Part shown: piece by piece, positions 25,001 to 55,087 of the stretch | How the letters are laid out: each line of letters begins with the position of its first letter | How positions within the stretch are numbered: the stretch's first letter is position 1 | Origin: a virus | Taxonomy: Duplodnaviria; Caudoviricetes | Direction: 5' to 3' (one strand) | IMG/VR virus record: IMGVR_UViG_3300032116_000195 | Coordinates: 1-61,112 of that record | DNA length: 61,112 nucleotides | Translations under genes and position numbers: made by a program | Notes under the pieces: model-generated | The model's input: the letters and a program-made list of their open reading frames with translations, nothing else | What the model was told of the DNA's origin: nothing | The model's database searches: none

Positions 25001-28000
25001 AATGCTATTGCAAAGTCTGGAGTAAAGGTGGAGATATGGACTGGTAAAGGTGAGCCTTACAAAAACTCAGAGGAGATGATCAAGGATGTGCGTGACAATA
25101 AGCACATGTACATCTTCTCAACAGAAGAAGGATTTGGAGATACACCAATAACAGATACACAAAGGCAGCAGAACGCTCTTCTTACAGACAGTGGTGTAAA
25201 GGATGTAAATGGTAAGCCACTGTTGATTAACGATATCTTCAGGTTTGTTCATGACTATTTTGGCCATACAAGGTTAGGTAATTCATTTGGCGCCATCGGA
25301 GAAGAGAATGCATGGAATGTACATGCAAGGATGTATTCTCCATTAGCCAGAAGAGCAATGACCACAGAGACAAGGGGCCAAAACTCTTGGGTAAACTTCA
25401 ACAAGTCATTCCGTAATCCTGATGGTACAATGAAGAAGAAGGGTGACGAAGGATATGTTCCTCCGGCACAGAGACCTTTCGCTGACCAGAAGATGGCTTT
25501 ATTACCAGAAGAGTTCTCTAATATAGAGGATTCTTATTCTTTAACGAGAGTTGATAAAGACAAGGTATCACAGAACATAGATCAGATTAAGAATAGTGAA
25601 GGAGAGGCTGGAGTTACAATGAACATCGATGGTAGTGTATATACTGGAGGTGGCCTTGTAGTACCTGCAGCTTCAATTAATACCACTACAGAAGAGATCA
25701 CGCCAGAGATGGTAGATCAGTTTGTAGAGGATAATCGTGACAAGATTGAGGGCAACCAGTTTAAGATTGGTCTGTATAAGTTTCCCGGCAGCAACCGTGT
25801 TTCCATAGATCTTAATATTATTACTCCAAAAGAGAACAGAGATGTTGCTGTGAAGTTTGCAGGAATGGCTGGCCAAGAATCTATCTACGATCTTGACACC
25901 AATGAAAACATAAAGACTGGATCTACTGGCGACAACCCAACCAAGTTTAATAACAGGCAGTTCAGAGAGATTGCAAATGCATTGGCCAATAATAGGATGC
26001 CAAATGTATTTGGCAAAGGTACAGATGTGGTGACCAGAACTTTGGCAGAGTCAATTGATATGGCTTCAAGGGCTTTGAAGAGGGCTGGCATTAAGTTTAA
26101 GATTGTTGACTCAGCAACTGATACTGAAGGGGCTAGGGCTGCTAGGGGTAATCAAGGTCTTTTTATTGCAGCAGATGGAACAATTATCATAGACAAGTCT
26201 AAGCTTGCTAACGACATCGAGGCTGGACTGGTTGTGTGGCACGAGGCTGCACATCCTGTGATGAACATCATAAGGAACACCGACAAGAAGTTGTACGATG
26301 CGGTAGTTCGGGGGCTTAATGGAGCAGCTAAAACCAATGACGGAGTATTCGGTGCTCTTGACTGGGCCAAAGAAAACTACTCAAGAGAGAAGTTATCTCA
26401 AATGTATGGACGTGAGGTTTCTGAAGAAGAGGCCGCAGAGGTTCAGAATGACGAAGCTATTGTAGAAACAATAGGTAGAATTAACTCTGGATTAATTGAT
26501 GTATCCAAGCTGGATACTGGATTGCGCCAGAAGCTTATTGATTTTGTGAACAGTATTGCTAAATTTTTTGGCATTGACCCTATCCTAAACGACACAGATC
26601 TTGCAGCATTCAAAAAGACTGTCAGCCAAGTTGCTGATGCGTTGAAGACTGGTAGAGATATCGCTGAAGTTGTTGGTGAAAGTAATGTAAAAAGATTTGA
26701 AGCATCGACTGAACAATCTAGGATAAGCAATGATGAGAATCCAGTATTCTTTGAGAATATTAAGAACTTTGCAAACCAATCAAGCTTTGCAAACAAAGTT
26801 GATTTTAAAGACGCTGTTCAGGCTAAGCTTAAAAGTTTTATCCCGGAACTTAAAAAGAAGTATGGTAAGGGATTTGACCCAACTGTTTATAACGATAGTA
26901 CCAAAAAGTATCTTTCTGATGTATTAACAAAAGAGGCTGCTAATGCTATATCTGCCCACCCAGAAGCTATAGGATGGTATGATGAAAAGACACAGTCTGC
27001 TCTTGCTGCAATTAGTGCTATACATCCGGAGATAGAGACAGATCAGGAAGCTAGGGGAGCATTCATTTTACCTCTGGCTGTGATGTCAAATGGTAATAAA
27101 GTAGACAAGAACTTTGAGCTTGCTGAGAAGCAGTATCAGATATTTAAGGATACAAAAAGGTTTGATCCAAACGGAGACTTTGGTGCTCAACAGGTTGGTA
27201 TTAAAAAGTCACTTAAGCTTATTAATGGCCTATTAGATAATGGCGTAACGATGGCTGAGATAAATCAGTTCTTGACATCTAAGCATCGTGCTGGCGATCT
27301 CAAGTATCGTAAGCCTGATGGAAAGTTGGGTGATCTAGTTAGTGGAGAGTTGGCTAATGAGGATGTCTATGGAGCTGTAATACTTGGCCCAAAGATTGGA
27401 AATGGATTCTATATGAATCTGTGGGGTGAGTTTGGGCAGCTTACTATGGACCGCTGGTTCATGCGTACATGGGGCCGCCTTACTGGGACTTTGATTGAAC
27501 GTGATAAGGATCTGATATCTAACGGTAAAAAGAGAATAGCATCTTCAATACAAGATATAAAGTCTGACAAAGAGGCTTCTAAGATATTAAAGTCCGTAAT
27601 TGGTTCTGTATCTGGCAGGTCTGTATCGGACATTGCAAATGCAATTGAGAAAGCTTCTGCTAAAAAAGATGTAAGAAATTTATTATCTTCGAATCAGAAA
27701 ACAGATGAGCTTCGTAAGGCTGGTAATGGTCTGGCTAAACTGTTGAGGGGAGAGAAGGAAGCGCCATCTAGCGGAGAGGAAAGGAAGTTTATCAGGGATG
27801 TATTCTCTGATGTGCAGAGAAGGTTAAGCGAAGAGAACGGTGTTGATATCACAATGGCAGATCTTCAAGCTGTAATGTGGTATCCAGAAAAGATACTGTA
27901 TGAATCCTTCAAAGAGGGAGAGTCTTTTGAAGATGCTTCCGAAGGATATACTGAAGATTCTGCACCAGATTATTTTAACGCAGCAAAGAAACTTGCTAAA

Positions 28001-31000
28001 AAATTAGGAGTAACAGATGAAGAAATTAATCAAGCCGTATCAGGCAGACGAGCAAATACTTCCGGAGGTACAAGAGTCGGAGATTCCCTTGCTGGCGAAA
28101 CAGTTGGCAGAAATGATCAAGAAGTCCTCGGTAAAATCAGACAACTCAAAGGCGGAGCAGCAGAGCTCAGTAAAAAATCAAGAGCGCAAGCCTCTGTAGG
28201 CAACCGCAACCTCGCACCTAACGGCAAACCATCCAACCTTAATGACAAACAATACGAACAGGTAAGAACGCCTGAGTTTAAGAATTGGTTTGGCGATTGG
28301 GAGAATGATCCTGCCAATGCATCTAAGGTTGTCGATGAGAATGGAGAGCCGTTGGTTGTTTATCATGGAGGAACATTAAATCCTGAAGACAGAGGTAAGG
28401 ATACATATACAGGAGACTATGGACTATATTTTACTTCTAGTCAAAGCAGAGCAAAGTCCTACACAAAATCTTCAAGCAAAGACTATAGAGATAAGTCTAA
28501 GGTTTTTGATGCTTATCTAAATATAAGAAATCCACTACCAAAAAACATATGGTCAAAGTGGAAGTATGGTGCTGATAGAATATCACAAAAAGAGTTTCAA
28601 TCACTTGAAGAAAATGCGGCTGATGGTATCATAGATAAGGGCATGCTTGGTATGAAATACACTAGCCAGTATGTCGTATTAGATATGGGTCAAATCAAAT
28701 CCGCAACAGATAACTCTGGCGCATTCAGCACTACAGATAACAGGATACAGGCTTCGGTAGGAAACCGTTCAGAAGAAGACCTTCGTGCTCCGGGTAAAGG
28801 CAAAGAAAGGAACAGGGCTTTGTCATCTAAGTTTGGTGATCTCGATCCCGAGACTCAGGCTAAGATTCAAGACGATGCTGTTACATATTTCCAGCGTCCC
28901 AACAAGCAGACATCAGAGGCTGTCAACGAGTTCTTGGATGGACTCAATATAGTGGATGCTGCTGACTATGTTCTAGGCAATCCAGATATTCCAGAAGTTT
29001 CCAAGGTTTGGATGGCTGCAGAGGTAGCTAAAAGACTTGGCACTCAGATGTCAGCAGAGACAGATCCTGCAATCAAGGAAGCTCTGGCCGATAAGCAAGC
29101 TGCCATATACAATGAGTTCGCAAAGAAAGCTACAGACTTAGGTCAGGCGGTTCAGGCATTCATAGCATTTAAGAAAGATCCTAATGCAGTTGAGTTCTTC
29201 CTGCCAAAGATACTTAGAGAACTTAAGAAGAAGGGAGTTGAGAATATTAGTGAGGTGCAGAAGGGAGAGATCGTTGGTATGTTGAAGGATGTTAACAATG
29301 CAAGCGAAGGTTTACCAAAAGACAAGGCAATTATTAAGCTGTCTCACTACTTGGCTGGCATTGCGCCAATGAAACCAATGGACGTATTGCAAGCCTTGTG
29401 GTATGCAAAGATCCTGTCTGGTGTTACAACACAGTCAACCAACTTCTTTGCCAACATATTTAATACTGCGTTCGAATTACCAGCGGTAGCCTTCAGGATT
29501 GCCATGTTGAATGGTTCTCCTATGTCTATGATTGCTGGCGTAAAAGGATTCGGTTCGGGGGTTGCCAAAGGAGCTATAACAGCGGCAGACATCATGAAGT
29601 CTGGCGTTAGGTCTAAAGAGTCAGACAAATACTTCTCTGAGAGTCCACTAGAGTATTTCACTTGGAGTAAGTGGCTAGGTAAGAAAGGTCAGGTTCTGGA
29701 TAAGATACCACCATTAAACTTTGGCGCATGGAAGTATGTAGGTAGAATGCTTGCCGCTACTGACGCACTGTTCTCTACGGCTAACCAAGAAGCTATTGCT
29801 AACATGCTAGCCTATGCTGAAGCTGCTGGCACTCCTGCTGGAAATAATTTCAAGAAGGCCAATCAAATGCTTGGCAACACAAAGGAGAATATATCCAACG
29901 CCAGAAGTCAGGCTACTGCCGAAGGGTTTAAGCCGGGTACTTTGCAGCACAAGAGAAGGGTAATTGAGATAGTTGCACAGGGTAGAAAAGGAACAGCCGA
30001 GGCTGATGCTATTGGTAAGAGGATCACAATGAACTACGATCCAGAGGGTTGGACTAAACCACTGTTTGATGCAACTGTTGCGTTGCAACAGAAGTTCCCA
30101 GCCATTAAGATGGTAGTCCCATTCGCTAGGATCGTTGCTAACCTTACAGAGAACTCTCTTAATTATAGTCCTTTTGGATTGATAAAGGCTGCTACTGGAT
30201 TAAGGAATCCATTTAATGATAGATCTAATAAGCTTACCACAGAAGAGCGTATCGACATGTTCAACAAGTTTGCTATTGGGATGACAGCTCTGTCGATTCT
30301 TGCAAGCAAGGTTGGTGAGGATGACGATGATTGGTTTGAAATTACTGCTGGCGGATCTACTGATATTCAGAAAAGATATGAACTTCAGAAAGGCAAATGG
30401 AGGCCGTATACCATAACACTCAAAGACGGTACTAAGATATCGTATAAAGACTGGCCAATCGCAGGTATTCTTGCTGGCGTTGGTCATATAAGAGACGCCA
30501 AGAAGTACAGCTTTGATGATAACACGCAGCTTCCGCTATATGCATACGGTTTCTTCTTGAATATGTATGACAAGTCCTTGCTGTCTGGACTCCAAGATTT
30601 CTTTGGAATGTTTGACGTTCAGGCTGGTCGTGGGAAGTATGCCCCAGACTCAAAGATGTCTCAAAGAATGGAGAAGTATGTTGCACAGCAGGTTAAGTCT
30701 GTAGCTGTATCCAATCTCGCACAGCAGACTGGTAGATTATATAGTGAGCTTGTTACTGGCGATCCACAGCGTGATGCTAAAACTTTCATGGAGGTTATAT
30801 ACAGAGACCTTCCAATGTTTAACGATCGCATCAGGCCAATCATTGATGTGTTTGGCGAGGAGGTTAAGTATAACACTACAGAGAGATTGACTCCTGTTTC
30901 AAATCCTGAAGGAGACAAGATGATCAAGTGGCTTAACGAGAACAAGTTCTTTGTTGGAGTGCCTAAGAAGATGAACATCATAATGGAGGATGGTACCGAG

Positions 31001-31195
31001 AGGCCAATGAATGATCAGGAATATTATGAGTATAGGAAGCTTGCTGGTCAGGAATCCAAGAAGATGATCCAAGAATTTATGGATGGTATCAAAGAGGATG
31101 ATAGGATGATAAGTGAGTCTATGTTTGATGCTGCACTTGAGACTGCTAGGTCTATAGCATATGTACAGATACTTGAGAAATACGGATTCAAATGA
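22040..31195 (+). CDS. Giant polyvalent internal virion protein (3051 aa)
   Basis: Contains HDYFGH and HEAAH zincin-like motifs, an ART-PolyVal-like segment (TPEFKNWFGDW...VVYHG...YFT...QIKSATDNSGAFS) and a helical LPD38-like C-terminus. Confidence 0.75.
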   Translation: MPDFILDDKKRSELDSNIKSMLSMGASQQDVMKYADDFGKMFGKKKDVSGPASQSSYLPSPFASETPQQKTQRHSNTAKSDAKGLLDNYESGLNQAFQKRDQFGMVDMFGVNQFEQSREGKAGKIVKQFQETGTAKKEDIKYLNQVAPKAATQIVFAGTPQDIKNKIQKTGKVDDADIESFDVNHKSIVGDAILENTAKFYRDQNQKQIATLNTIPGFNQQLASDPTYLDGFYKNLNAQKAKELSALNSKYPLRTVPSGVASVQYRENDNEYKAALKSINDRYSKAYDAIGRVAASKVSGADKDPLEVGMAYLKYADQERYSLAKQAGRSSADRDIADLGSQIQIANAPDLASIRKAKDTSETLDNRFPDKVIADTRRRLGAELYKDDNWFANLKPSVERLDKAAEQLPQANREAYYKYVRPMEQRMLGTEIPQSGALNQLISGVMSTVEGTNNFLSRLIGQRTEADVARAALDSPTRTRFEAVGAGPQKARLDELNNKVKAGKQLTAQEMAEKSDLETYTDVRSTPQEIIDGSLNLAGQVLFQALGTKGVASGLGAATKAAGFLKNATTAAMTAEDIIAANAVNSGITMPQIMNAAGAMVAYSSSYDQAEQEGMQLYPNDPMKRKLYAKSVAGLNALTERIFKDEKVLDAFRREVSPSVGALVNQIASGSLKREALQPTIKNIVKDGLKIVGLSQIENLKETTEEVATSIGTDLTKMILSPEKFDPNQMADNVASTATTMFTDGQLVALFAGTGAFRANKVGVNMLSKLGTDKAFTADVKSVINAQVMSGELTSEQGREKMDVVNAIESVNRVDMPKVKAVADLSDNASKKYSIALANEKLLKKKLLSSEDEALKTKIQEDIKSSEEFRKSILDKKIFIDDNFNVVAEGNNQSKVQGTGADSNIGSQGTVAGKRLFNDPNPEAAVIENEFKASKGINTPEPAKITRLDEEKSKRIADAYDQLIDSPDDPEVQAAYKAMADETMEQFNAIAKSGVKVEIWTGKGEPYKNSEEMIKDVRDNKHMYIFSTEEGFGDTPITDTQRQQNALLTDSGVKDVNGKPLLINDIFRFVHDYFGHTRLGNSFGAIGEENAWNVHARMYSPLARRAMTTETRGQNSWVNFNKSFRNPDGTMKKKGDEGYVPPAQRPFADQKMALLPEEFSNIEDSYSLTRVDKDKVSQNIDQIKNSEGEAGVTMNIDGSVYTGGGLVVPAASINTTTEEITPEMVDQFVEDNRDKIEGNQFKIGLYKFPGSNRVSIDLNIITPKENRDVAVKFAGMAGQESIYDLDTNENIKTGSTGDNPTKFNNRQFREIANALANNRMPNVFGKGTDVVTRTLAESIDMASRALKRAGIKFKIVDSATDTEGARAARGNQGLFIAADGTIIIDKSKLANDIEAGLVVWHEAAHPVMNIIRNTDKKLYDAVVRGLNGAAKTNDGVFGALDWAKENYSREKLSQMYGREVSEEEAAEVQNDEAIVETIGRINSGLIDVSKLDTGLRQKLIDFVNSIAKFFGIDPILNDTDLAAFKKTVSQVADALKTGRDIAEVVGESNVKRFEASTEQSRISNDENPVFFENIKNFANQSSFANKVDFKDAVQAKLKSFIPELKKKYGKGFDPTVYNDSTKKYLSDVLTKEAANAISAHPEAIGWYDEKTQSALAAISAIHPEIETDQEARGAFILPLAVMSNGNKVDKNFELAEKQYQIFKDTKRFDPNGDFGAQQVGIKKSLKLINGLLDNGVTMAEINQFLTSKHRAGDLKYRKPDGKLGDLVSGELANEDVYGAVILGPKIGNGFYMNLWGEFGQLTMDRWFMRTWGRLTGTLIERDKDLISNGKKRIASSIQDIKSDKEASKILKSVIGSVSGRSVSDIANAIEKASAKKDVRNLLSSNQKTDELRKAGNGLAKLLRGEKEAPSSGEERKFIRDVFSDVQRRLSEENGVDITMADLQAVMWYPEKILYESFKEGESFEDASEGYTEDSAPDYFNAAKKLAKKLGVTDEEINQAVSGRRANTSGGTRVGDSLAGETVGRNDQEVLGKIRQLKGGAAELSKKSRAQASVGNRNLAPNGKPSNLNDKQYEQVRTPEFKNWFGDWENDPANASKVVDENGEPLVVYHGGTLNPEDRGKDTYTGDYGLYFTSSQSRAKSYTKSSSKDYRDKSKVFDAYLNIRNPLPKNIWSKWKYGADRISQKEFQSLEENAADGIIDKGMLGMKYTSQYVVLDMGQIKSATDNSGAFSTTDNRIQASVGNRSEEDLRAPGKGKERNRALSSKFGDLDPETQAKIQDDAVTYFQRPNKQTSEAVNEFLDGLNIVDAADYVLGNPDIPEVSKVWMAAEVAKRLGTQMSAETDPAIKEALADKQAAIYNEFAKKATDLGQAVQAFIAFKKDPNAVEFFLPKILRELKKKGVENISEVQKGEIVGMLKDVNNASEGLPKDKAIIKLSHYLAGIAPMKPMDVLQALWYAKILSGVTTQSTNFFANIFNTAFELPAVAFRIAMLNGSPMSMIAGVKGFGSGVAKGAITAADIMKSGVRSKESDKYFSESPLEYFTWSKWLGKKGQVLDKIPPLNFGAWKYVGRMLAATDALFSTANQEAIANMLAYAEAAGTPAGNNFKKANQMLGNTKENISNARSQATAEGFKPGTLQHKRRVIEIVAQGRKGTAEADAIGKRITMNYDPEGWTKPLFDATVALQQKFPAIKMVVPFARIVANLTENSLNYSPFGLIKAATGLRNPFNDRSNKLTTEERIDMFNKFAIGMTALSILASKVGEDDDDWFEITAGGSTDIQKRYELQKGKWRPYTITLKDGTKISYKDWPIAGILAGVGHIRDAKKYSFDDNTQLPLYAYGFFLNMYDKSLLSGLQDFFGMFDVQAGRGKYAPDSKMSQRMEKYVAQQVKSVAVSNLAQQTGRLYSELVTGDPQRDAKTFMEVIYRDLPMFNDRIRPIIDVFGEEVKYNTTERLTPVSNPEGDKMIKWLNENKFFVGVPKKMNIIMEDGTERPMNDQEYYEYRKLAGQESKKMIQEFMDGIKEDDRMISESMFDAALETARSIAYVQILEKYGFK

Positions 31196-47328: not shown

Positions 47329-47561
47329 TAGTAATAAATTTTAACGTAATCTCCGACCACTTCAAAGGTGATCCGAAGGTTCTCGAAATAGAGACATCTA
47401 CCCATGTACTGCTGGGTATAGAAACCGATCTTGGGTTCTTCATCTCTTTGGCAGATGAGTTGCAGTTCCCCCGATGGTTCGGGAGAACTGAACCCATCCA
47501 GTCCCCAAGAGAATGACACTCCATCTTCGATTCTACTCATAATCTGTCGAAACTTTGTCAT
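47328..47561 (-). CDS. Hypothetical protein
   Basis: 77-aa ORF in the operon. Confidence 0.5.
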   Translation of the reverse strand: MTKFRQIMSRIEDGVSFSWGLDGFSSPEPSGELQLICQRDEEPKIGFYTQQYMGRCLYFENLRITFEVVGDYVKIYY

Positions 47562-47769
47562 TCAATACTGCTTTTGCTATGTTAATAATCTCATCAGCCA
47601 GTTCAGTCTCAGCCAGTAATCCTGACTGACCCTCCTCAAAGTGAAGGATTTCTACCGACCTAAATCTTGCTGACAATTTATGGATGTCGTAATGTTCTCC
47701 ATCCATGTCTGCGTCAACGAAGATCTCTATGTCTTCGCCATTGACTGGGTATTCAAATCGTACTTTCAT
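47533..47769 (-). CDS. Hypothetical protein
   Basis: ATG at 47769 overlaps the upstream stop. Confidence 0.55.
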   Translation of the reverse strand: MKVRFEYPVNGEDIEIFVDADMDGEHYDIHKLSARFRSVEILHFEEGQSGLLAETELADEIINIAKAVLNDKVSTDYE

Positions 47770-48041
47770 AAGTTTACTTCTATGGTTTTGAGGTAGCCGT
47801 TTCCTTTGTTGAGGATGGCTTCTTCCCGTGAATTGAATGCTTCGCTGGTTACGATCTTGCCTGCCCATCTTTTTACGTTCACGTAGATGGTGTTGACAAG
47901 GTCGTTCTTGGATCTGTACTTGCTGGCGTAATTCCCTTTACGATTCCAAGTCAGTTTCTTGCCATCTACCTCTCCAACGTAGCAGTTGAGTTCCTTTACG
48001 AACGTGAGGTTCTTTACTGGTCTTCCTTCTCTTGTGTGCAT
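47766..48041 (-). CDS. Hypothetical phage protein
   Basis: TREGRPV...W...G....NDL pattern. Confidence 0.6.
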   Translation of the reverse strand: MHTREGRPVKNLTFVKELNCYVGEVDGKKLTWNRKGNYASKYRSKNDLVNTIYVNVKRWAGKIVTSEAFNSREEAILNKGNGYLKTIEVNL

Positions 48042-48160
48042 GGTTTTGTATGTTCGGATATTCCCCCGAACTGGGTTAAAAGTTGCCTTACCTTTTCCCC
48101 TAATTCCATATTGTTAGGGGTGTCTAAGATTAGTTGTACTGGGACAGCGATATAGTCCAT
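48014..48160 (-). CDS. Small hypothetical protein (48 aa, not in ORF track)
   Basis: MDYIAVPVQLILDTPNNMELGEKVRQLL...; starts just after the tRNA-like gene. Confidence 0.45.
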   Translation of the reverse strand: MDYIAVPVQLILDTPNNMELGEKVRQLLTQFGGISEHTKPCTQEKEDQ

Positions 48161-48173
48161 GATTAAATTTTAG

Positions 48174-48244
48174 CACCCATCCGAGGATTCGAACCTCGAC
48201 CTCTGCCTTTGGACGGCATTATTCTACCATTAAAATAGACGGGG
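48174..48244 (-). tRNA. Degenerate tRNA-Trp(CCA)-like gene
   Basis: Cloverleaf with T arm cgagg-TTCGAAT-cctcg, D loop AATGGTA and anticodon loop gtCCAaa; mismatches at 1:72, 10:25 and 27:43. Confidence 0.65.
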
Positions 48245-48254
48245 AGGATAGCGT

Positions 48255-48560
48255 CCTATCCTATATGCGATCGGATATAGTTAGTACCGATTTGGCTTTT
48301 TTATATGCGATGGGGTATAGTATTGCACTATTGACAAGAATAATCTGAATTGCATATAAATATTTACCATAATGTGCGACATAATGCACAGTAACACAAA
48401 TTATGTTAGTGTGCAGATTTTAGTTTATTTAATGGGTAAATTGTATATCACAATTCTTCGAAAATGAATGACAAATGTCAAGTTTTTTGTGCAATTTACT
48501 GGACAAATCTGCCAGTTTCACTACCTAACTATGTCACAAATTTTTGCTGTTTTTGTGACA
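48255..48560. repeat. Array of short palindromes/inverted repeats
   Basis: CTATATGCGATCGGATATAG and a variant copy, TGCACA..TAACA/TGTTA..TGTGCA, and TGTCACAAA-N11-TTTGTGACA. Confidence 0.65.
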
Positions 48561-48594
48561 AAAAAACCCCTTCAACGTAGACACGTTCGGGGGT
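48560..48594 (-). terminator. Intrinsic terminator ending the early small-gene operon
   Basis: Minus strand acccccgaacgt-gtct-acgttgaaggggt then T7. Confidence 0.75.
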
Positions 48595-48606
48595 GGAAAA
48601 CACACA

Positions 48607-48921
48607 CTAAAACGAAGACATCAAAAATTCCTTTCGCCACTCATCCTTAATGCACGGCTCAATGTCTTCCCACAAATAATCTCTCATCAGTTCTTTTATC
48701 TCTCTTTCTTCCCGATCGCCTCGTTCCCAAGTACTATGGACATCCGATCTTCGGTACTCAAAGTTGTGGCTGTGGATCAGTTCGATCAGCCTACTAAATT
48801 TTTCATCTTCCATATTTCTCATGACTTTTATTTCGGTATGGTAGTCTAACATTAAGGACTGGATGTGTTCTATTTCCACCTTGGTTAACACTATCCCAAG
48901 GTCAACGCATTTACTTATCAT
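48607..48921 (-). CDS. Hypothetical early protein
   Basis: 104-aa ORF coupled to the upstream gene. Confidence 0.6.
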   Translation of the reverse strand: MISKCVDLGIVLTKVEIEHIQSLMLDYHTEIKVMRNMEDEKFSRLIELIHSHNFEYRRSDVHSTWERGDREEREIKELMRDYLWEDIEPCIKDEWRKEFLMSSF

Positions 48922-49100
48922 TGTTCAACTGGTTTCATTCCATGATATTCATCTCCAGTCAACCTCTTTTTTTCTCCGTCAAAGAAGGTGACATCGTAAA
49001 CGATGTTCTGACCACCCAAGTAGACTTGCTCTACCTTGGCGACCTTGCCTCTTCCGCTGTAAAATCTAACGTCAAATGTTTTGGTAATTGTCTCTCTCAT
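48918..49100 (-). CDS. Small early protein (SH3-like beta pattern)
   Basis: AC-rich leader before the ATG. Confidence 0.6.
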   Translation of the reverse strand: MRETITKTFDVRFYSGRGKVAKVEQVYLGGQNIVYDVTFFDGEKKRLTGDEYHGMKPVEQ

Positions 49101-49120
49101 TGGTGTGTGGTTTAGTGAGG

Positions 49121-49164
49121 AACTGGCGGTGATATCGCTTCACCTTCGGCCTTTCCTGCCAGTT
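49121..49164 (-). ncRNA. Anticodon-less tRNA-like element A
   Basis: aactggc/gccagtt 7-bp stem plus ggtga-agcgata-tcacc 5-bp arm. Confidence 0.7.
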
Positions 49165-49173
49165 CGGGGGTAA

Positions 49174-49305
49174 TTAATCTTCCCAAGCAGTGATGATCTT
49201 CTCCCCAGTAGAATCATCCAAGTAAATAGTCCAATCTCCAATCGTTACATAGAGGGACTCATCGGATCGAATATCGATCGTGATGCCATTAATAATCATT
49301 TCCAT
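49174..49305 (-). CDS. Small early protein (43 aa, not in ORF track)
   Basis: MEMIINGITIDIRSDESLYVTIGDWTIYLDDSTGEKIITAWED* with aaaaccacacact leader. Confidence 0.6.
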   Translation of the reverse strand: MEMIINGITIDIRSDESLYVTIGDWTIYLDDSTGEKIITAWED

Positions 49306-49567
49306 AGTGTGTGGTTTTATAGTAATTAACTGAATATTGAAATGAACCTTTAGTGCCTTTCTTTACTTCATGTCGGGATGGAACATAGTTTCCATAGTAG
49401 TCTTTATGCCCCATTGCAGAAAGCATACAAGCCCCACATTCGATCAGATGCATAGCCTCCCTTCCGATTGACCCTTCCATCCTCCATGCCATACCCGTGT
49501 CGATTAGGTGTTGGATGTAGTCATAGCCTCGCTCAATTTGGAGTCTTTTGATTGTTTGGTAGTTCAT
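49289..49567 (-). CDS. Hypothetical early protein
   Basis: 92 aa with AC-rich leader. Confidence 0.7.
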   Translation of the reverse strand: MNYQTIKRLQIERGYDYIQHLIDTGMAWRMEGSIGREAMHLIECGACMLSAMGHKDYYGNYVPSRHEVKKGTKGSFQYSVNYYKTTHYGNDY

Positions 49568-49586
49568 GTGTGTGTGTTTTGATGAG

Positions 49587-49634
49587 GACTGCCTCGCCTA
49601 ACGAGGGCGAATGATAGCGGTCTATCGGGCAGTT
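49587..49634 (-). ncRNA. Anticodon-less tRNA-like element B
   Basis: actgcc/ggcagt stem, gatag-accg-ctatc hairpin and tcgcc-ctcgtta-ggcga arm. Confidence 0.7.
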
Positions 49635-49642
49635 CGGGGGTA

Positions 49643-49825
49643 TTATCTACTAACAAATACTCCGTTTTTTGTATACTCTACCTTGTATCCATTTTTTATC
49701 AGTTCAGCATAGTATTCAGACTTCGGCATGATATAACCATCTGCCCTTCGGAATCCGCATCTGCATTTTCCGGTGGATGTCTTCAACTTAATTGTGGACT
49801 TTTTAGTTAGTGCGTTGTCGTTCAT
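49643..49825 (-). CDS. Small early protein
   Basis: 60-aa ORF with an ATGA overlap. Confidence 0.55.
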   Translation of the reverse strand: MNDNALTKKSTIKLKTSTGKCRCGFRRADGYIMPKSEYYAELIKNGYKVEYTKNGVFVSR

Positions 49826-49905
49826 TTTTTCAGTTTTTTGTGGTAAAGTGATGCAAAGATGATGTTCGCAAGTGCGAAGGCGGTGATGGTTGAGATGATT
49901 ACCAT
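49822..49905 (-). CDS. 27-aa membrane peptide
   Basis: MVIISTITAFALANIIFASLYHKKLKK*; coupled on both sides. Confidence 0.5.
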   Translation of the reverse strand: MVIISTITAFALANIIFASLYHKKLKK

Positions 49906-50036
49906 GTTATTCCGAGGATTTGTTTTCCAATGGTGGTTACTTGGCGGTCCATGCCCATCATGTAGAGGGTAATGAATCCGATCTGAATTGTCAAGGCAAG
50001 GGTGACGATGGCGGTCATTGCTTTTAGAACTTTCAT
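49899..50036 (-). CDS. 45-aa membrane peptide (not in ORF track)
   Basis: MKVLKAMTAIVTLALTIQIGFITLYMMGMDRQVTTIGKQILGITW* with AC-rich leader. Confidence 0.6.
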   Translation of the reverse strand: MKVLKAMTAIVTLALTIQIGFITLYMMGMDRQVTTIGKQILGITW

Positions 50037-50056
50037 GTGTGTGTGTTTTGATGAGG

Positions 50057-50098
50057 AACTGAGGGCAGTATCGCTCTGCCTTATCCACTCTCTCAGTT
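50057..50098 (-). ncRNA. Anticodon-less tRNA-like element C
   Basis: aactgag/ctcagtt stem, D-loop-like gagtgg and ggcag-agcgata-ctgcc arm. Confidence 0.7.
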
Positions 50099-50105
50099 CG
50101 GGGGA

Positions 50106-50345
50106 TTACTTTGAAATTTCAGCATCCATTAAGTAATCGTGAATGCAGTCCAATTCAGACTTGTTTAAATCGTTGTAGTCACTTACAAGGAAGGATTCGT
50201 ACATCTTGATGGCATCTGCCCATAGGTAGTCAAGTTCCCTCTCGTTTCGGTCAGGCAGTGACATTGCCATGCAGAAGACCCCGTAACTATTCATGTAGCT
50301 CCTGTGCATTGCTTGGTCAAAATCGGTTGTGTCAATTTTATACAT
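50106..50345 (-). CDS. Hypothetical early protein
   Basis: ATG at 50345 after the AC-rich leader. Confidence 0.65.
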   Translation of the reverse strand: MYKIDTTDFDQAMHRSYMNSYGVFCMAMSLPDRNERELDYLWADAIKMYESFLVSDYNDLNKSELDCIHDYLMDAEISK

Positions 50346-50365
50346 TTTTGTGTGGTTTTGATGAG

Positions 50366-50411
50366 GACTGCCTCCTGTCACGAACAGGATGCCATCAGAA
50401 TGGGGGCAGTT
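50366..50411 (-). ncRNA. Anticodon-less tRNA-like element D
   Basis: actgcc/ggcagt stem, ccat-tctg-atgg hairpin and tcctg-ttcgtga-cagga arm. Confidence 0.7.
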
Positions 50412-50418
50412 CGGGGGA

Positions 50419-50499
50419 TTACATATTCCCTGCTAAGACAAGACCAAAGGCAAGGACGACCAATACGATCATCAAGTAAGTAAAGTCTCTATTTTTCAT
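50419..50499 (-). CDS. 26-aa membrane peptide (not in ORF track)
   Basis: MKNRDFTYLMIVLVVLAFGLVLAGNM*; ATGA overlap, stop abuts element D. Confidence 0.55.
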   Translation of the reverse strand: MKNRDFTYLMIVLVVLAFGLVLAGNM

Positions 50500-50666
50500 G
50501 CATAAAGGTTTGGGTTATTCAATTGCATCCTCAGTAGAAAGGTGCGGTACATTTGTCTCGCCTCCCTTATTGAAATGCCATACAATTCGACATATTGGCG
50601 GACTATCTTGTCATCGATAGTGAAGGTCTTTCTGACCTTGTTTTTTCTGCTAAATACGGGTCTCAT
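50496..50666 (-). CDS. Small basic protein (56 aa, not in ORF track)
   Basis: MRPVFSRKNKVRKTFTIDDKIVRQYVELYGISIREARQMYRTF... with AC-rich leader. Confidence 0.6.
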   Translation of the reverse strand: MRPVFSRKNKVRKTFTIDDKIVRQYVELYGISIREARQMYRTFLLRMQLNNPNLYA

Positions 50667-50677
50667 TGGTGTGTGGT

Positions 50678-50860
50678 TTAAATAGTTACAAATTCGGGTT
50701 CTAACTTGCTTGGCGATGGGTAGATGTAGAAGAATAAGTTCGGGAACTTCTCCTTCAATGCATTAGCCTTTTGTTCGGCATCTTTTCGTTTGTCATAAAA
50801 TCCATGAGTTCCGATTTCATTGTAGTTACCTTCTTCAATTACGTGGTAGTATACTTTCAT
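50678..50860 (-). CDS. Small early protein
   Basis: 60 aa with AC-rich leader. Confidence 0.6.
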   Translation of the reverse strand: MKVYYHVIEEGNYNEIGTHGFYDKRKDAEQKANALKEKFPNLFFYIYPSPSKLEPEFVTI

Positions 50861-50876
50861 CGTGTGTGGTTTTGAT

Positions 50877-50921
50877 TGGGAACTGAGCAGGGAATCGAAC
50901 CCTGCTTACAACCATTCAGTT
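50877..50921 (-). ncRNA. Anticodon-less tRNA-like element E (canonical T loop, encoded CCA)
   Basis: aactga/tcagtt stem, atggtt D-loop-like segment, gcaggg-TTCGATT-ccctgc, then C-CCA. Confidence 0.75.
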
Positions 50922-50928
50922 CGGGGAC

Positions 50929-51108
50929 TTATTCGTTAGGATATATGGTATAATCCTCACCATCTACATTCATCTGCTCCAACTCTTGGTCATACGCAGT
51001 TCCATTGTCTACCATTTCGAGGTACTTTGCTTCTGCCTCTGCCTGAGAACTGGCTTCAATAGTCAACCATGTGGTGTACGTTCTTTGTTGTTTGATTTGA
51101 TACTTCAT
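50929..51108 (-). CDS. Small acidic early protein (59 aa, not in ORF track)
   Basis: MKYQIKQQRTYTTWLTIEASSQAEAEAKYLEMVDNGTAYDQELEQMNVDGEDYTIYPNE*. Confidence 0.65.
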   Translation of the reverse strand: MKYQIKQQRTYTTWLTIEASSQAEAEAKYLEMVDNGTAYDQELEQMNVDGEDYTIYPNE

Positions 51109-51121
51109 TGTGTGTGTGTTT

Positions 51122-51174
51122 GGTTAAGACCACCTTGCGGTGGTTTCGGCTACTCTAAGCCTCATCAGTTAACC
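51122..51174 (-). ncRNA. Hammerhead ribozyme, type I
   Basis: ggttaa CTGATGA ggct-tagagt-agcc GAAA ccacc-gcaa-ggtgg TC ttaacc: complete core and three perfect stems. Confidence 0.93.
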
Positions 51175-51630
51175 TTGCAGTTCGGGAATTTCAATCGTCT
51201 GCTCTTCCAACTTCGATAGTGGTAGCTTATTTGAGAATACCCAACCGAATTCATTGGACATTTTCGCCATCCATTCACGACCTTGTGGGTTATTGGCTAC
51301 ATACCCATCAGCGAAAGGCTTCTCAGTACGTATTGAATTGTCGTAGTATTGGACACGAACAAAAGGGGAGTTGACCATGCTTCCGGAATAGGATACTTCG
51401 TTGATCAACTTTATGCCTTCCGGTATCGTATAAATGGCGAAAAGTTCGGGGTAGTCATTGATGGAATTGAACCTCTCAAGGAATACCACATCATTGTACT
51501 TTTTGTAGCGGTTGACTACCCTTACCCATTCGCTTTGATTGTAGTCACTTTTGGAGTGGTTCAGTACTTCATCGAACGTTAACTCTCTAACTTCCATGAT
51601 AGGAAGCGGTGTGGTGAATGTCAGTTTCAT
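51169..51630 (-). CDS. Hypothetical early protein flanked by two hammerheads
   Basis: 153 aa; the stop codon lies in stem I of the downstream ribozyme. Confidence 0.7.
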   Translation of the reverse strand: MKLTFTTPLPIMEVRELTFDEVLNHSKSDYNQSEWVRVVNRYKKYNDVVFLERFNSINDYPELFAIYTIPEGIKLINEVSYSGSMVNSPFVRVQYYDNSIRTEKPFADGYVANNPQGREWMAKMSNEFGWVFSNKLPLSKLEEQTIEIPELQG

Positions 51631-51643
51631 GTGTGTGTGATTT

Positions 51644-51700
51644 AGTGTGTTTCGCCATTCTGTGGCTCATCAGTTCGGGAGAAATACCCGAAGACACACT
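51644..51700 (-). ncRNA. Hammerhead ribozyme, type III
   Basis: agtgtg TC ttcggg-tatttct-cccgaa CTGATGA gcca-cagaa-tggc GAAA cacact. Confidence 0.93.
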
Positions 51701-51940
51701 CTCATCAGTCACCCTCACGGGTACGCTTTCTGCCGAAGCAGAGACATTGGATACCCAAACGATAAATCAGATTGGGTAGCGGCTGATGGGTTACTTTCGA
51801 TGTGACGTGCCTTGTCGTGGTGGATGTCAGTGCATTGATGGGATTGATTACCCATTGTTGACTCTCCGATTGTGGGTTGCCATGGGGCAGAGCCGATGTC
51901 CCGATTTCGGTTAACACATTCAGTCGATTTCACTCCAATA
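51701..51940 (-). ncRNA. Structured leader RNA of the early operon
   Basis: tctgc-TTCG-gcaga, accc-GTGA-gggt and tacccaa/ttgggta hairpins closed by catcag/ctgatg. Confidence 0.55.
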
Positions 51941-52291
51941 AACAAAGAACTTTTTTGTACTTAGAAATTTTGCACTTACACTCTACACCTCATCCGATAT
52001 TTTCCCTTGCGGTGGTTTCGTTATGTGGTTGCATTTAGACTATTGCACTCAGGCAGTCGCACCATTACTTCAGAGCGGTTGTAAGCGGAAACTTCAAAGA
52101 ACTAAAGTAGTGACTAACTCTCTACTTTCGAGAGTAAAATTGCAAGGAAAATATTTATCCGCAAAATGTGGACTAAGTATTGACAACGAAAAAGAGAATT
52201 TAAAATCTCTACAAATCAGTCATATCAACAACGAAAACGTTTTCGTAAGTTTTAGTAAAAAAGTTTAAAAGTACTTTCTAAAAACTCTCGA

Positions 52292-52495
52292 TTATAGCGT
52301 GTTGAGGTGATTATTCAACCTTGATTGGTCTATAAAAAACATATGGCAGAGTGCGACAACTTCGGGGTCTTCTTCGTTCTTATACTGCATCAGAAGACGG
52401 AGGAATTCGACCTCACTTTTGCCCTCAATTTCTATTATTAATTGCTTCAAGTCTTTAAGTACTTCTGCTTTGGCGGATTCAAAATACGTGTTCAT
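52292..52495 (-). CDS. Hypothetical protein
   Basis: ATG at 52495 after aaccac leader. Confidence 0.5.
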   Translation of the reverse strand: MNTYFESAKAEVLKDLKQLIIEIEGKSEVEFLRLLMQYKNEEDPEVVALCHMFFIDQSRLNNHLNTL

Positions 52496-52585
52496 GTGGT
52501 TAGATTTGGGAGGCGGAAAATACATTACAAAATACTCCCATGATTACGTGATTTCCCGTAATGAAAGTGGGGCAGTTCGGGGGCA

Positions 52586-52909
52586 TCAAAGCCTCTTATT
52601 AAGTAGATACCTACGTATAGCAGACAAGTACTCCCGACCAAGAGGAGCAAGAGAAAGTTTATAGTCTTGTATATGTATAAGAGAGAGGGAAGAGAGAGTA
52701 TTAACCGAATTGTATAACGCCCCAACACTAATTGGATGTCCCATTCGTTTGGCATGGCGTTGAACTCCAGACTGACGGATGCCTTCGGGAAGGTATGCAA
52801 TGGAGTATAGGACAAAGATATCACTGGCCGAAAGTTCTGGAAGGTCGAACCTTCGAGATACTTTGATAATGGCAGAGGGCATGAGAAAAATATACTTATT
52901 CAACTTCAT
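52586..52909 (-). CDS. MarR-like winged-helix protein
   Basis: LSASDIFVLYSI...ALYNSVNTLSSLSLI...LSLAPLGREYL. Confidence 0.55.
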   Translation of the reverse strand: MKLNKYIFLMPSAIIKVSRRFDLPELSASDIFVLYSIAYLPEGIRQSGVQRHAKRMGHPISVGALYNSVNTLSSLSLIHIQDYKLSLAPLGREYLSAIRRYLLNKRL

Positions 52910-53411
52910 GGGTCGGAAAGGATGAAAAGAAGGGGCGGCAATTGTAACATGACGTTCACCGCCACCTTGTGTGGTTTTTCAGTACTATCGTTGATGTTTT
53001 TTATCGTTTGTCTGCATCCATTTTCCCCTTCCGATTTGCATCCCTTCGGACTCATTGCATCCACTCGCATGATGCACATGATTAAGGCACAACCGATTAG
53101 CATTTTGGATACACTAATGGTGCATTAATTTTGTGTGCCGAAAACCGATTTCGGGATGCCCAAATTGACCCCCACCCGATGCGCAAATCCGACTCCGCAA
53201 CCGCACGCCACACCCACCATTTATATGCATTACCCCCACAATTCATCCACACAAATCCTATTTCTCCAACCAGATCCTACCAACCACAGAACCCACGACT
53301 TTTTGAATGGGCCTGTGAGGTCATTACAGGCGATTCTAGGCGGTCTCTATGTTTAATCAGCAGAGATATTGCGGCAATAACAACCGCCATATTCTTGGTT
53401 TATTAAACCTG

Positions 53412-53503
53412 TAGAACAGGCAGGATTCGAACCTGCAAAGGCAGCTACAACCCTATTCACTTTGTAAGGGGAGCACATCCTACGTACCATACGCCACTGT
53501 TCT
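53412..53503 (-). ncRNA. tRNA-like RNA with expanded, irregular anticodon region
   Basis: agaacag/ctgttct acceptor, gcgt-atggt-acgt D arm and gcagg-TTCGAAT-cctgc T arm; no assignable anticodon. Confidence 0.65.
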
Positions 53504-53573
53504 ATGTCCCAAGCTTCACTTGATGCGTCCAGCAAGGAGCGGCTTGGTAATCCACCATAACTTATGCCTTTGG

Positions 53574-53980
53574 CTATTCGTTTGCGTGGAAACAAGACCA
53601 CTGAAGTGTGCTTCGCAATCCTATTCGATACTATCTCAAGGCAATTGGAGAGGCATCGTGGTACTGTTGATGCGAAGATAAACGGCTAACTCTCGATATT
53701 ATTGTTTTATGAACATCTGAGGATAACTCGTAAACGATAATAGAGAGTGAAGTAATTTCGCCATTCTGGTTCTACCTGCTAGGGTAGGGGTCCAGTCAAA
53801 ACCCCAAGCTAGGTTTATCCGAGGACGGAATGTTTAAGCTGATAGCAGGAGCGACAGAGATCAGACTCTCTGACCGAAAGGTAGCTATGACCCGGGACGT
53901 GGGTTCTCAATGGTGATAGTTTTAACGAATAGGGTTACTTCCTTTTAAGCGAAGCTTTACCCGAACATGAATAACTCATG
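53574..53980 (+). ncRNA. Candidate large structured non-coding RNA
   Basis: Nested long-range helices and many hairpins in an ORF-free 400-nt region. Confidence 0.5.
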
Positions 53981-54006
53981 GTGATAGTTACTTATAAATA
54001 CTAGTT

Positions 54007-54144
54007 ATGAAGAATAAGTTAGGTGTTAAGAATAGCTTAGTGAATAACATTAATGCCAAGAAGAAGGCAGGAACCTCTAAGCCTAAGAGTAAGTCTACAG
54101 TAAGTAAAGAAGCCTACGACAAGATGAAGAAGGGCTGGAAGTGA
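54007..54144 (+). CDS. Small basic protein (45 aa, not in ORF track)
   Basis: MKNKLGVKNSLVNNINAKKKAGTSKPKSKSTVSKEAYDKMKKGWK*; GTGA overlap with the next gene. Confidence 0.6.
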   Translation: MKNKLGVKNSLVNNINAKKKAGTSKPKSKSTVSKEAYDKMKKGWK

Positions 54145-54392
54145 AAAGGCACGTCAAGATTTACTTGGATTACTATGGCTATACTGGCGATGAGTTTATT
54201 AGCTGTGAGGTCTGTGGCTCCCGAGCTGTTGACATTCATCATATTGATTGCAGGGGTATGGGCGGCAGCAAATCTAAAGACAAGATCGAGAATTTAATGG
54301 CCCTTTGTAGATCCTGCCATCTTGAGTATGGCGACAAAAAACATTACATTGAGTTTCTTACTGATATTCACAAAAAAGTAGTACAAAAGTAG
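54141..54392 (+). CDS. HNH endonuclease
   Basis: CEVC..DIHHI...NLMALCRSCH. Confidence 0.85.
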   Translation: MKRHVKIYLDYYGYTGDEFISCEVCGSRAVDIHHIDCRGMGGSKSKDKIENLMALCRSCHLEYGDKKHYIEFLTDIHKKVVQK

Positions 54393-54442
54393 TTTGATAT
54401 TCATTAACATTTATTTAGTGAATAACTCTCTATTTTAGCGGT

Positions 54443-55087
54443 ATGATTACACTACTTCTCGTTTTGATTGGTTCTATACCAACGCCAGCAGGATACACTA
54501 GGGTTAAGACAGATGACTTTGGTACTCACATCAGGAACTACAGACTTAAAGAAGACAAGACAGTCTATTTATATAATGGACAAAAAAAGGTAAACCAGAC
54601 TGCCCAGTATGCTGTACTTGACATTCCGGTTGGAATCATGGACTTGCAGCAGTGTGCTGACGCTGTCATGAGGATCAGGTCTGAGTATCTTTTCAGAAAT
54701 AAATTACCGATTTGCTTCTACGATAATAACAGAAAGCCATTCCATTTTAGCGGAACAACTCTGGGTCACCTCGACAAATATCTTGAGGTAGTCTTCAGTA
54801 GGTGCAACTCCGCTAGTCTGGAGAAGCAGATGGTCAGGAAGAACATCAGGGATATGCAGATCGGTGACGTCTTGATCAAGGGTGGATTCCCGGGTCATGT
54901 AGTTATAGTCGTTGACATGGCGGTAAATGCTAAGGGAGAGAAAGTTTATATGTTAGCACAGAGCTATATGCCAGCTCAGGATATACATATTCTTAATGGC
55001 GAGAACGGTCCTTGGTATACACTGAAAGAGGGTATTATAGACACCCCAGAATACACGTTCTATTCTAATCAGCTTATGGGTTGGTGA
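54443..55087 (+). CDS. DUF4846-family protein (NlpC/P60-like)
   Basis: DLQQCADAVMRIRSEYL, GGFPGHVVIVVD and LAQSYMPAQDIHIL. Confidence 0.75.
   Translation: MITLLLVLIGSIPTPAGYTRVKTDDFGTHIRNYRLKEDKTVYLYNGQKKVNQTAQYAVLDIPVGIMDLQQCADAVMRIRSEYLFRNKLPICFYDNNRKPFHFSGTTLGHLDKYLEVVFSRCNSASLEKQMVRKNIRDMQIGDVLIKGGFPGHVVIVVDMAVNAKGEKVYMLAQSYMPAQDIHILNGENGPWYTLKEGIIDTPEYTFYSNQLMGW

Follow-up and report, generated by a model that had tools for sequence, protein, structure and literature searches.

Gene-flanking hammerhead ribozymes have been described in prophages, where, in the passages of the study drawn on here, they cut polycistronic RNAs of about 2 kb in vitro and are proposed to process long phage transcripts (Perreault 2011, PMC3088659). 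The hammerhead designated HH-A here belongs to this kind, known in phages since 2011, and its locus shares with the clusters of those passages the placement of canonical hammerheads on the coding strand in intergenic gaps, in this case two of them around a single ORF, as well as the proposed role of turning a long phage transcript into gene-length mRNAs. Unlike the clusters as described there, it combines a type III and a type I hammerhead in one operon with tRNA-like elements in equivalent gaps, one of its ribozymes ends a conserved leader of about 430-450 nt, and it comes from what is probably an uncultured crAss-related phage of freshwater. The same account places the HHphage hammerhead of the haloarchaeal viruses HF1 and HF2 13 nt ahead of the first ORF in an early transcript, the 5' end of which was mapped to within 3 nt of the cut site (Perreault 2011, PMC3088659). 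In the case of HH-A, too, 13 nt separate the ribozyme from the start codon of the first ORF. However, HHphage defines the 5' end of a polycistronic early mRNA as mapped in vivo, whereas HH-A is known from sequence alone; HHphage is a structural variant needing high Mg2+, whereas HH-A has a standard core; and for HHphage a conserved long leader is not reported in the portions of that source used here. HH-A also has the same fold, topology and core as the type III hammerheads of viroids and plant satellites that make up the seed of Rfam family RF00008, but those process rolling-circle multimers of circular RNAs, whereas HH-A sits in an operon of a double-stranded DNA phage. In the crAss-like phage phi14:2, as far as the part of the preprint used here describes it, two long intergenic regions are, from the earliest time, more highly transcribed than most genes (Drobysheva 2020 preprint). 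Our search found no published work on hammerheads or tRNA-like punctuation in crAss-like phages; supplementary files could hold such cases.

The window analysed here, 61,112 nt in length, is a whole IMG/VR virus record (IMGVR_UViG_3300032116_000195), linear and with a CheckV completeness of 54%, and a related record, 68,071 bp long with repeats at its termini, is rated as complete. Encoded in the window are a crAss-type muzzle protein (PF25731, 3.3e-16), a terminase and a primase-helicase, the last having as its nearest cultured relatives proteins of Tenacibaculum and Flavobacterium phages (33-34% identity). The DNA runs containing the stretch are labelled freshwater and fungus metagenomes, and the 1301 nt around HH-A gave no match in a search for DNA similarity to cultured phages. 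The source is probably an uncultured crAss-related phage infecting Bacteroidota. Elsewhere in the window, a 3051-aa ORF (22040-31195, + strand) carries the ADP-ribosyltransferase domain of polyvalent proteins (PF18760, 2.7e-15), and a 93-nt tRNA-like gene (53411-53503, - strand; ARAGORN tRNA-Gly(ccc), RF00005 31.8 bits), in which about 36 nt stand in place of the 17 expected by the model, sits in a 1.4-kb stretch lacking any ORF of at least 120 aa (52950-54440). The commonest 8-mer of the window on both strands is CCCCGAAC, with 25 occurrences against 0.57 expected and the extended consensus C-CCCCGAAC-T-G (for example at 216, 1301, 10357, 18935, 26313, 33162, 39561, 46240 and 57471). Ten copies fall within 52582-48592, and the other 15 lie outside it on either strand, mostly inside long ORFs, a distribution that suggests a role at the DNA level. 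The 7-mer CCCGAAC is also frequent in related loci.

The hammerhead itself and its parts are as follows.

51644-51700, - strand: HH-A, type III hammerhead, identified by an RF00008 match, core and stems read directly, the MFE fold and compensatory changes
51700-51694, - strand: 5' strand of stem III, AGUGUGU
51693, - strand: C17; the predicted cut follows this C, between 51693 and 51692
51692-51687 with 51679-51674, - strand: stem I, UUCGGG with CCCGAA
51686-51680, - strand: loop I, UAUUUCU
51673-51667, - strand: core CUGAUGA
51666-51663 with 51657-51654, - strand: stem II, GCCA with UGGC
51662-51658, - strand: loop II, CAGAA
51653-51650, - strand: GAAA
51650-51644, - strand: 3' strand of stem III, ACACACU
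51643-51631, - strand: 3' spacer of 13 nt, followed by the ATG at 51630

An earlier note had claimed for this segment a full core, a GUC site and three perfect stems, and on direct reading of the - strand every core base and stem is present and all of its coordinates and motifs are correct, including the ATG 13 nt past stem III. The stems of 6 (I), 4 (II) and 7 bp (III) are entirely Watson-Crick, with stem III open and stems I and II closed by loops. The core has the C3 U4 G5 A6 N7 G8 A9 and G12 A13 A14 of a type III hammerhead, the A15.1-U16.1 pair (A 51650 with U 51694) and a non-G base at position 17 (C 51693), along with the core-adjacent pairs U1.1-A2.1 (U 51692/A 51674) and G10.1-C11.1 (G 51666/C 51654), and the triplet at the cut site is GUC. 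The complementarity between UUCU of loop I (51683-51680) and AGAA of loop II (51661-51658) that the note had pointed out is likewise found at those bases and amounts to 4 bp. HH-A also contains the CCCGAACUG word of the tRNA-like elements described below.

The Rfam check proposed in the earlier note gave a split result. RF00008 (Hammerhead_3, clan CL00010) matches HH-A over the full model with 44.4 bits (E = 2.5e-8 on 801 nt and 1.9e-6 on the whole window, both strands), and this is the top match of the family in the window, where only four matches have E up to 1. The score nevertheless lies under the gathering score of 48.5, a database threshold and not a biochemical feature, and for this reason a default scan at gathering thresholds does not list HH-A and reports only two tRNAs. 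The shortfall results from loop lengths that differ from the model, not from the core or stems: in the alignment loop I carries 6 inserted nt and loop II lacks 3, so that relative to the model the first loop is longer and the second shorter.

The MFE fold of 66 nt is the exact three-stem hammerhead (-19.8 kcal/mol, z -2.32), and 3 of 200 shuffles folded as well. The word CTGATGA occurs 25 times in the window (9 on the + and 16 on the - strand), and at only two of these is it followed by a hairpin and then GAAA, namely in HH-A and at 51168, which is the second hammerhead, HH-B. When 291 nt of context are folded, the MFE structure instead pairs the 5' strand of stem III with leader bases; this alternative has an ensemble frequency of 0.0003 and a z of -0.8, and it is absent from the comparative consensus of the leader. 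Word searches of IMG/VR found no close sequence homologue of HH-A itself: a 33-position pattern of its exact words had 0 loci, and none of the 115 loci sharing its 14-mer CCCGAACTGATGAG forms a hammerhead. By its motif, its statistical significance and the pairing kept in relatives, 51700-51644 is a type III hammerhead, for which self-cleavage is predicted.

Evidence for this kept pairing came from related sequences, which were located through DNA words of the neighbouring intergenic repeats in IMG/VR and through a leader word in metagenome contigs. A script scanned 31 sources (325,316 bases) for hammerheads, and further copies were added by reading. A type III hammerhead was found at the junction of leader and first ORF in five other distinct sequences (L165, L010, L005, L011 and L012), with identical copies in L160 and L167 (to L010), in L015 (to L011) and, for the hammerhead, in L018 (to L012). 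RF00008 independently detected the copies of L005, L010, L011 and L015 with 31-34 bits. The hammerheads of L010 and L165 directly follow a homologous leader and are thus positional orthologues of HH-A, from which they differ in the sequence of all three stems. When the hammerhead structure is imposed on the alignment of the six type III sequences, 90.8% of the 87 cells pair, as against 29.8-45.9% in controls with slid partners; 6 of the 17 stem pairs change on both sides, and the covariation score of 0.329 is reached by 0 of 500 shuffles. All eight unpaired cells belong to the row of L012, which MAFFT misaligned: this hammerhead has a U added behind its core and a stem II of greater length, and by eye its stems are intact. 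Together with the Rfam match and the fold, these compensatory changes bear out the type III identity that had been assigned from HH-A alone. Every hammerhead of the group lies 7-57 nt before the following ATG. Three further type III hits of the script (two in L140 and one in L151) were set aside as spurious, having stems of 3-4 bp inside coding sequence, and L009, L013, L014 and L016, which are G+C-rich and by eye show no element-like structure, were discarded as chance matches.

By-eye readings of the loops give complements of 5 bp in L165 (UGCUG:CAGCA), of 4 bp including one G-U in L012 (UAUU:AGUA) and of 3 bp in L005 and L011 (GCU:AGC); the complement in L010 is weak, and the registers differ among the relatives. 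Loop-loop pseudoknots are common in the set described in the consulted passages of Perreault 2011, and a tertiary contact between loops I and II of HH-A is plausible. The nearly identical contigs L010 (1870-1818) and L165 (334-282) differ mainly within the hammerhead, where both loops (I and II) and position 4 of the core are affected. The core of L165 is canonical, whereas L010 has C instead of U4, and in L004 only a decayed hammerhead remnant is left at the leader end. In L017 another kind of element occupies this place. As L004, L010 and L017 show, the ribozyme is evidently dispensable at the leader slot.

HH-A and HH-B (51700-51644 and 51174-51122) lie on one strand and bracket the ORF at 51630-51169, within an arrangement composed of the following features.

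52231-52246, no strand assigned: 16-bp perfect palindrome ACGAAAACGTTTTCGT, located in AT-rich sequence ahead of the leader
51693-52140, - strand: putative leader RNA, about 430-450 nt, conserved, structured and non-coding, whose 3' end would be made by HH-A
51702-51708, - strand: second CUGAUGA word, 3' strand of a conserved leader helix, pairing with CAUCAG 51788-51783
51169-51630, - strand: 153-aa ORF without functional assignment, between HH-A and HH-B
51122-51174, - strand: HH-B, type I hammerhead, found by the script and read directly, cut predicted after C 51128
50929-51108, - strand: 59-aa ORF, downstream of HH-B
50880-50922, - strand: tRNA-like intercistronic element E1
50365-50412, - strand: tRNA-like intercistronic element E2
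50056-50099, - strand: tRNA-like intercistronic element E3
49586-49635, - strand: tRNA-like intercistronic element E4
49120-49165, - strand: tRNA-like intercistronic element E5
51630, 51108, 50860, 50666, 50345, 50034, 49567 and 49302, - strand: ATGs

About 600 nt separate the stop of the upstream ORF (52292) from HH-A. The first 150 nt or so after 52292 are AT-rich, and the remainder is conserved in blocks with L004 and L010, while a 5' domain of the leader recurs in L012. Five small ORFs (37-77 aa) overlap 52291-51631 on the - strand and are not conserved, and the homologous stretch of L004 has no ORF of at least 40 aa on the leader strand. For the 3' domain (51899-51701), five sequences yield a consensus fold in which 14 of the 32 pairs are compensatory. 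A scan of 51300-52100 with Rfam returned nothing beyond the hammerhead and two chance snoRNA hits, leaving the leader without a family, and no terminator-like site was seen on the - strand from leader to ORF (50900-52300). The existence of this conserved, folded leader adds to the in silico support for the claim that the predicted cut between 51693 and 51692 parts a long leader RNA from the mRNA. The description of the ORF behind it as the first early gene holds in part: it is the first ORF after the leader and an AT-rich, promoter-like region, but same-strand ORFs lie further upstream (52292-52525 and 52586-52909). The palindrome ACGAAAACGTTTTCGT also occurs upstream of the leaders in L004, L010 and L017, and it may be considered a candidate operator.

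Searches of IMG/VR with the leader word GGCTCTGCCCNNNGGCAACCCACA recovered L004 only, and the leader word CCGCTCTGAAGTAATGGTGCG recovered L012 only; a shorter form of the leader word gave 16 metagenome loci, 13 of which were unrelated chance matches and three useful (L160, L167 and L165). Among eight distinct leaders, a type III hammerhead forms the end of six; that of L017 is a tRNA-like element whose acceptor stem is different, and that of L004 is the decayed hammerhead. The first ORF behind the leader is unrelated among the window, L004, L010 and L017, and therefore the ribozyme goes with the leader or the slot and not with a particular gene. The second CUGAUGA word (51708-51702) was considered as a further ribozyme core and rejected: no GAAA or stems follow, and it is paired within a conserved leader helix (columns 132-138 with 211-217 of the consensus fold) in which relatives have other complementary sequences, CGCCC(C) with GGG(G)UG.

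The 153-aa ORF product has no Pfam or PHROG family and no usable Atlas match, and no relatives of it were found in IMG/VR. HH-B, which follows it, reads as a stem I strand GGUUAA, the core CUGAUGA, stem II (GGCU and AGCC around the loop UAGAGU), GAAA, stem III (CCACC and GGUGG closed by GCAA) and UC, after which the predicted cut precedes the second stem I strand UUAACC. The 5' strand of stem I holds the TAA stop of the 153-aa ORF, and the cut would fall 19 nt before the next ATG at 51108. The MFE structure of 101 nt is the hammerhead fold. HH-B has homologues in L004, L143 and L010 that differ in stems II and III, and the stem I of these type I hammerheads covaries (GGU[U/G]AA with UU[A/C]ACC); only this stem was counted for covariation, because MAFFT misaligned stems II and III of the four sequences. 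RF00163 (Hammerhead_1) has no match at HH-B, and RF03152 gives there only 22.4 bits (E 0.95). The sole Hammerhead_1 hit in the window, at 22215-22249 (10.8 bits, E 1.15), was taken as chance. Ahead of HH-B stands CCCGAACUGCAAGGUU, a sequence similar to the 5' half of a tRNA-like element.

Five further gaps of the operon contain E1-E5, elements of 43-50 nt each which share the order CCCCC, stem, short linker (often AUGGU), T-arm-like hairpin, C-UCAUCAAAAC, C/A-rich leader and ATG. The stem has 6-7 bp (8 bp with an extra inner pair) and is formed by GAACUGN with NCAGUUC or NCAGUCC; E1, for example, consists of 5'-CCCC, a GAACUGA/UCAGUUC stem, AUGGU and a T-arm with GGUUCGAUUCC, and weakly resembles mascRNA-menRNA (RF01684, 18.3 bits, E 2). 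The window and its relatives together contain 43 such elements, 37 of them distinct. In one subtype of 12 elements, whose T-arm has a 7-nt loop of the U-U-C-R-A type, there are 13 consensus pairs; of the 6 pairs in the T-stem, 5 change on both sides, and no variation is seen in GUUCGAnUC and AUGGU. Because the T-stem covaries while GUUCGAnUC is fixed, we interpret the elements as RNA structures that mimic the upper half of a tRNA. They have no anticodon arm, and none is called as a tRNA by ARAGORN. The systems with which they can be compared are the tRNA punctuation of mitochondrial transcripts, the t-elements of plant mitochondria and mascRNA. Like these, E1-E5 copy an acceptor stem and T-arm and sit between cistrons; unlike the tRNAs of mitochondrial punctuation, they lack the anticodon arm and have the conserved flanks CCCCC and C-UCAUCAAAAC. 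By analogy with tRNAs, they are presumably cut by RNase P and RNase Z.

The two kinds of element exchange with each other. The slot before the 59-aa ORF holds HH-B in the window and a tRNA-like element in L012, where the orthologous ORF has 45 of 57 aligned residues identical; a 253-aa ORF of L005 follows a hammerhead, whereas its orthologue in L012 and L018 (246/253) follows a tRNA-like element; and the leader of L017 ends in a tRNA-like element in place of the hammerhead. As hammerheads and tRNA-like elements alternate before orthologous genes, both can be read as cutting marks. In a DNA run (X8), the joints between the window and contigs of related strains lie at or close to intergenic elements, for example at 50082/50406, and one of these contigs skips 323 nt between E3 and E2. 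Gene cassettes may therefore recombine at the elements, a weak hint given that the sides that match are only about 30 nt long. Seven of the eight - strand starts from 51630 to 49302 have A/C-rich leaders of the AAAC(C)ACACAC type and no purine run resembling a Shine-Dalgarno sequence. The exception is the start at 49825, which overlaps the previous ORF and lacks this type of leader. At 48592-48560 (- strand), CCCCGAACGUGUCUACGUUGAAGGGG followed by a U run looks by eye like an intrinsic terminator ending the operon, and the same arrangement precedes a tRNA in L004.

In three freshwater metatranscriptome runs, short contigs are identical to 51147-51338, 51173-51421, 51445-51595 and 51701-51874, and at that identity nothing else of 47500-54500 is found there. 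None of these contigs crosses either predicted cut, but at a depth of about 3, with contigs only that possibly derive from DNA and in runs chosen by this very stretch, this speaks neither for cleavage nor against it.

The motif, its significance, compensatory conservation, a fixed post-leader position and exchangeability with tRNA-like elements are all observed for HH-A. As the best explanation, we consider it probable that this uncultured crAss-related phage has in HH-A a functional type III hammerhead by which the leader is severed from the mRNA; that the two are co-transcribed, that cleavage takes place in vivo and whatever effects it has on mRNA stability or translation are what we infer from these observations. 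The Rfam score under the gathering value, the lack of a close sequence homologue, the other pairing of stem III in the 291-nt fold and the dispensability of the ribozyme at the slot speak against this explanation. Under this proposal the leader of about 430-450 nt and the small ORFs behind it would be transcribed as one RNA, and the ribozyme would fold once its 57 nt are made, probably helped by the contact between loops I and II. Cutting co-transcriptionally after C 51693 by internal transesterification, as a constitutive self-cleavage, it would leave the leader with a 2',3'-cyclic phosphate end 8 nt past its last conserved helix, and the mRNA with a 5'-OH end carrying stems I and II, then about 24 nt of unpaired C/A-rich sequence and the AUG. 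In this operon of small and presumably early genes, HH-A would thus be one cutting mark among several that are interchangeable, and the following cistrons would be separated by HH-B and by the tRNA-like elements, the latter presumably through RNase P and RNase Z.

The severed leader could itself be the product that matters, HH-A being mainly a 3'-end maturation device with a secondary effect on the mRNA. That the 3' domain of the leader is conserved, with its 14 of 32 compensatory pairs, while the ORF behind it is not, that the cut falls 8 nt after the last conserved helix, and that a type III topology leaves almost no ribozyme on the leader all speak for this idea, as does the high transcription of the long intergenic regions of phi14:2 from the earliest time in the part of that preprint used here (Drobysheva 2020 preprint). 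However, L004 keeps the leader and has lost the ribozyme, and the leader has no known function or partner; we regard this emphasis as possible though short of likely, and it is compatible with severing of leader from mRNA rather than opposed to it. We give a somewhat lower chance, and see as rather unlikely, that cleavage serves to switch translation on by freeing about 24 nt of C/A-rich RNA for initiation independent of Shine-Dalgarno pairing. Bacteroidota initiate translation without such pairing. Before the cut, the 7-bp stem III would tie ACACACU to the leader and leave 13 unpaired nt before the AUG, the A/C-rich starts of the operon (seven of the eight) lack Shine-Dalgarno-like runs, and the position of all hammerheads of the group 7-57 nt before an ATG is in line with this reading. 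Nevertheless, equivalent slots are filled by HH-B and its type I relatives, which do not leave a stem of the ribozyme close to the AUG, and the tRNA-like elements do the same job without such masking.

Decay in L004, the core change in L010 and the presence of different elements in the same slots of different phages would also be expected if the hammerhead were a relic or a selfish passenger moving with gene cassettes, its cleavage being useless to the phage, and CCCGAACUG within HH-A and CCCGAACUGCAAGGUU before HH-B suggest repeated birth and replacement. But in six distinct sequences all three stems are maintained through compensatory changes, and the slot is nearly always filled, in the eight leaders by six hammerheads, one tRNA-like element and one decayed hammerhead, which makes a useless passenger improbable. 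The bracketing of one ORF by two hammerheads of the same strand further raises the idea that HH-A and HH-B excise an RNA of 565 nt (51692 to 51128), subsequently ligated to a circular mRNA. Ligases of the RtcB type join 5'-OH and 2',3'-cyclic phosphate ends such as the excised products would carry. The joined ends would not rebuild a hammerhead, because the two ribozymes differ in type and sequence. No back-joined form is present among the RNA contigs, whose depth says little on this point, and in the passages drawn on here circular or spliced products of clustered phage hammerheads were sought and none was found (Perreault 2011, PMC3088659). We consider such circularization very improbable. 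Returning to the severing of leader from mRNA by HH-A, a broader extension that we put forward only tentatively is that the leader represents a new family of functional phage ncRNA, with a 3' end purposely made by the cutting module present in the slot, in most relatives a type III hammerhead and in one a tRNA-like element. The clade would then run the operon as a modular RNA punctuation, with free swapping of hammerheads and half-tRNAs through recombination at a shared CCCCCGAACUG word. Across both strands of the whole genome no 8-mer is commoner than this word, which may have a separate role at the DNA level.

HH-A and HH-B were both missed by default Rfam annotation, which implies that such elements are under-counted in uncultured phages. 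The setting of HH-A points, as judged from the conserved pairing, to an undescribed, conserved and folded leader RNA whose end the ribozyme would make. The 3.5-kb operon, whose equivalent gaps are occupied by two hammerheads, one of type III and one of type I, and by five tRNA look-alikes, offers a compact test case for the idea, so far a proposal, that phages cut long early messages into single-gene pieces; among its natural relatives, the kind of element before the same gene has been exchanged.
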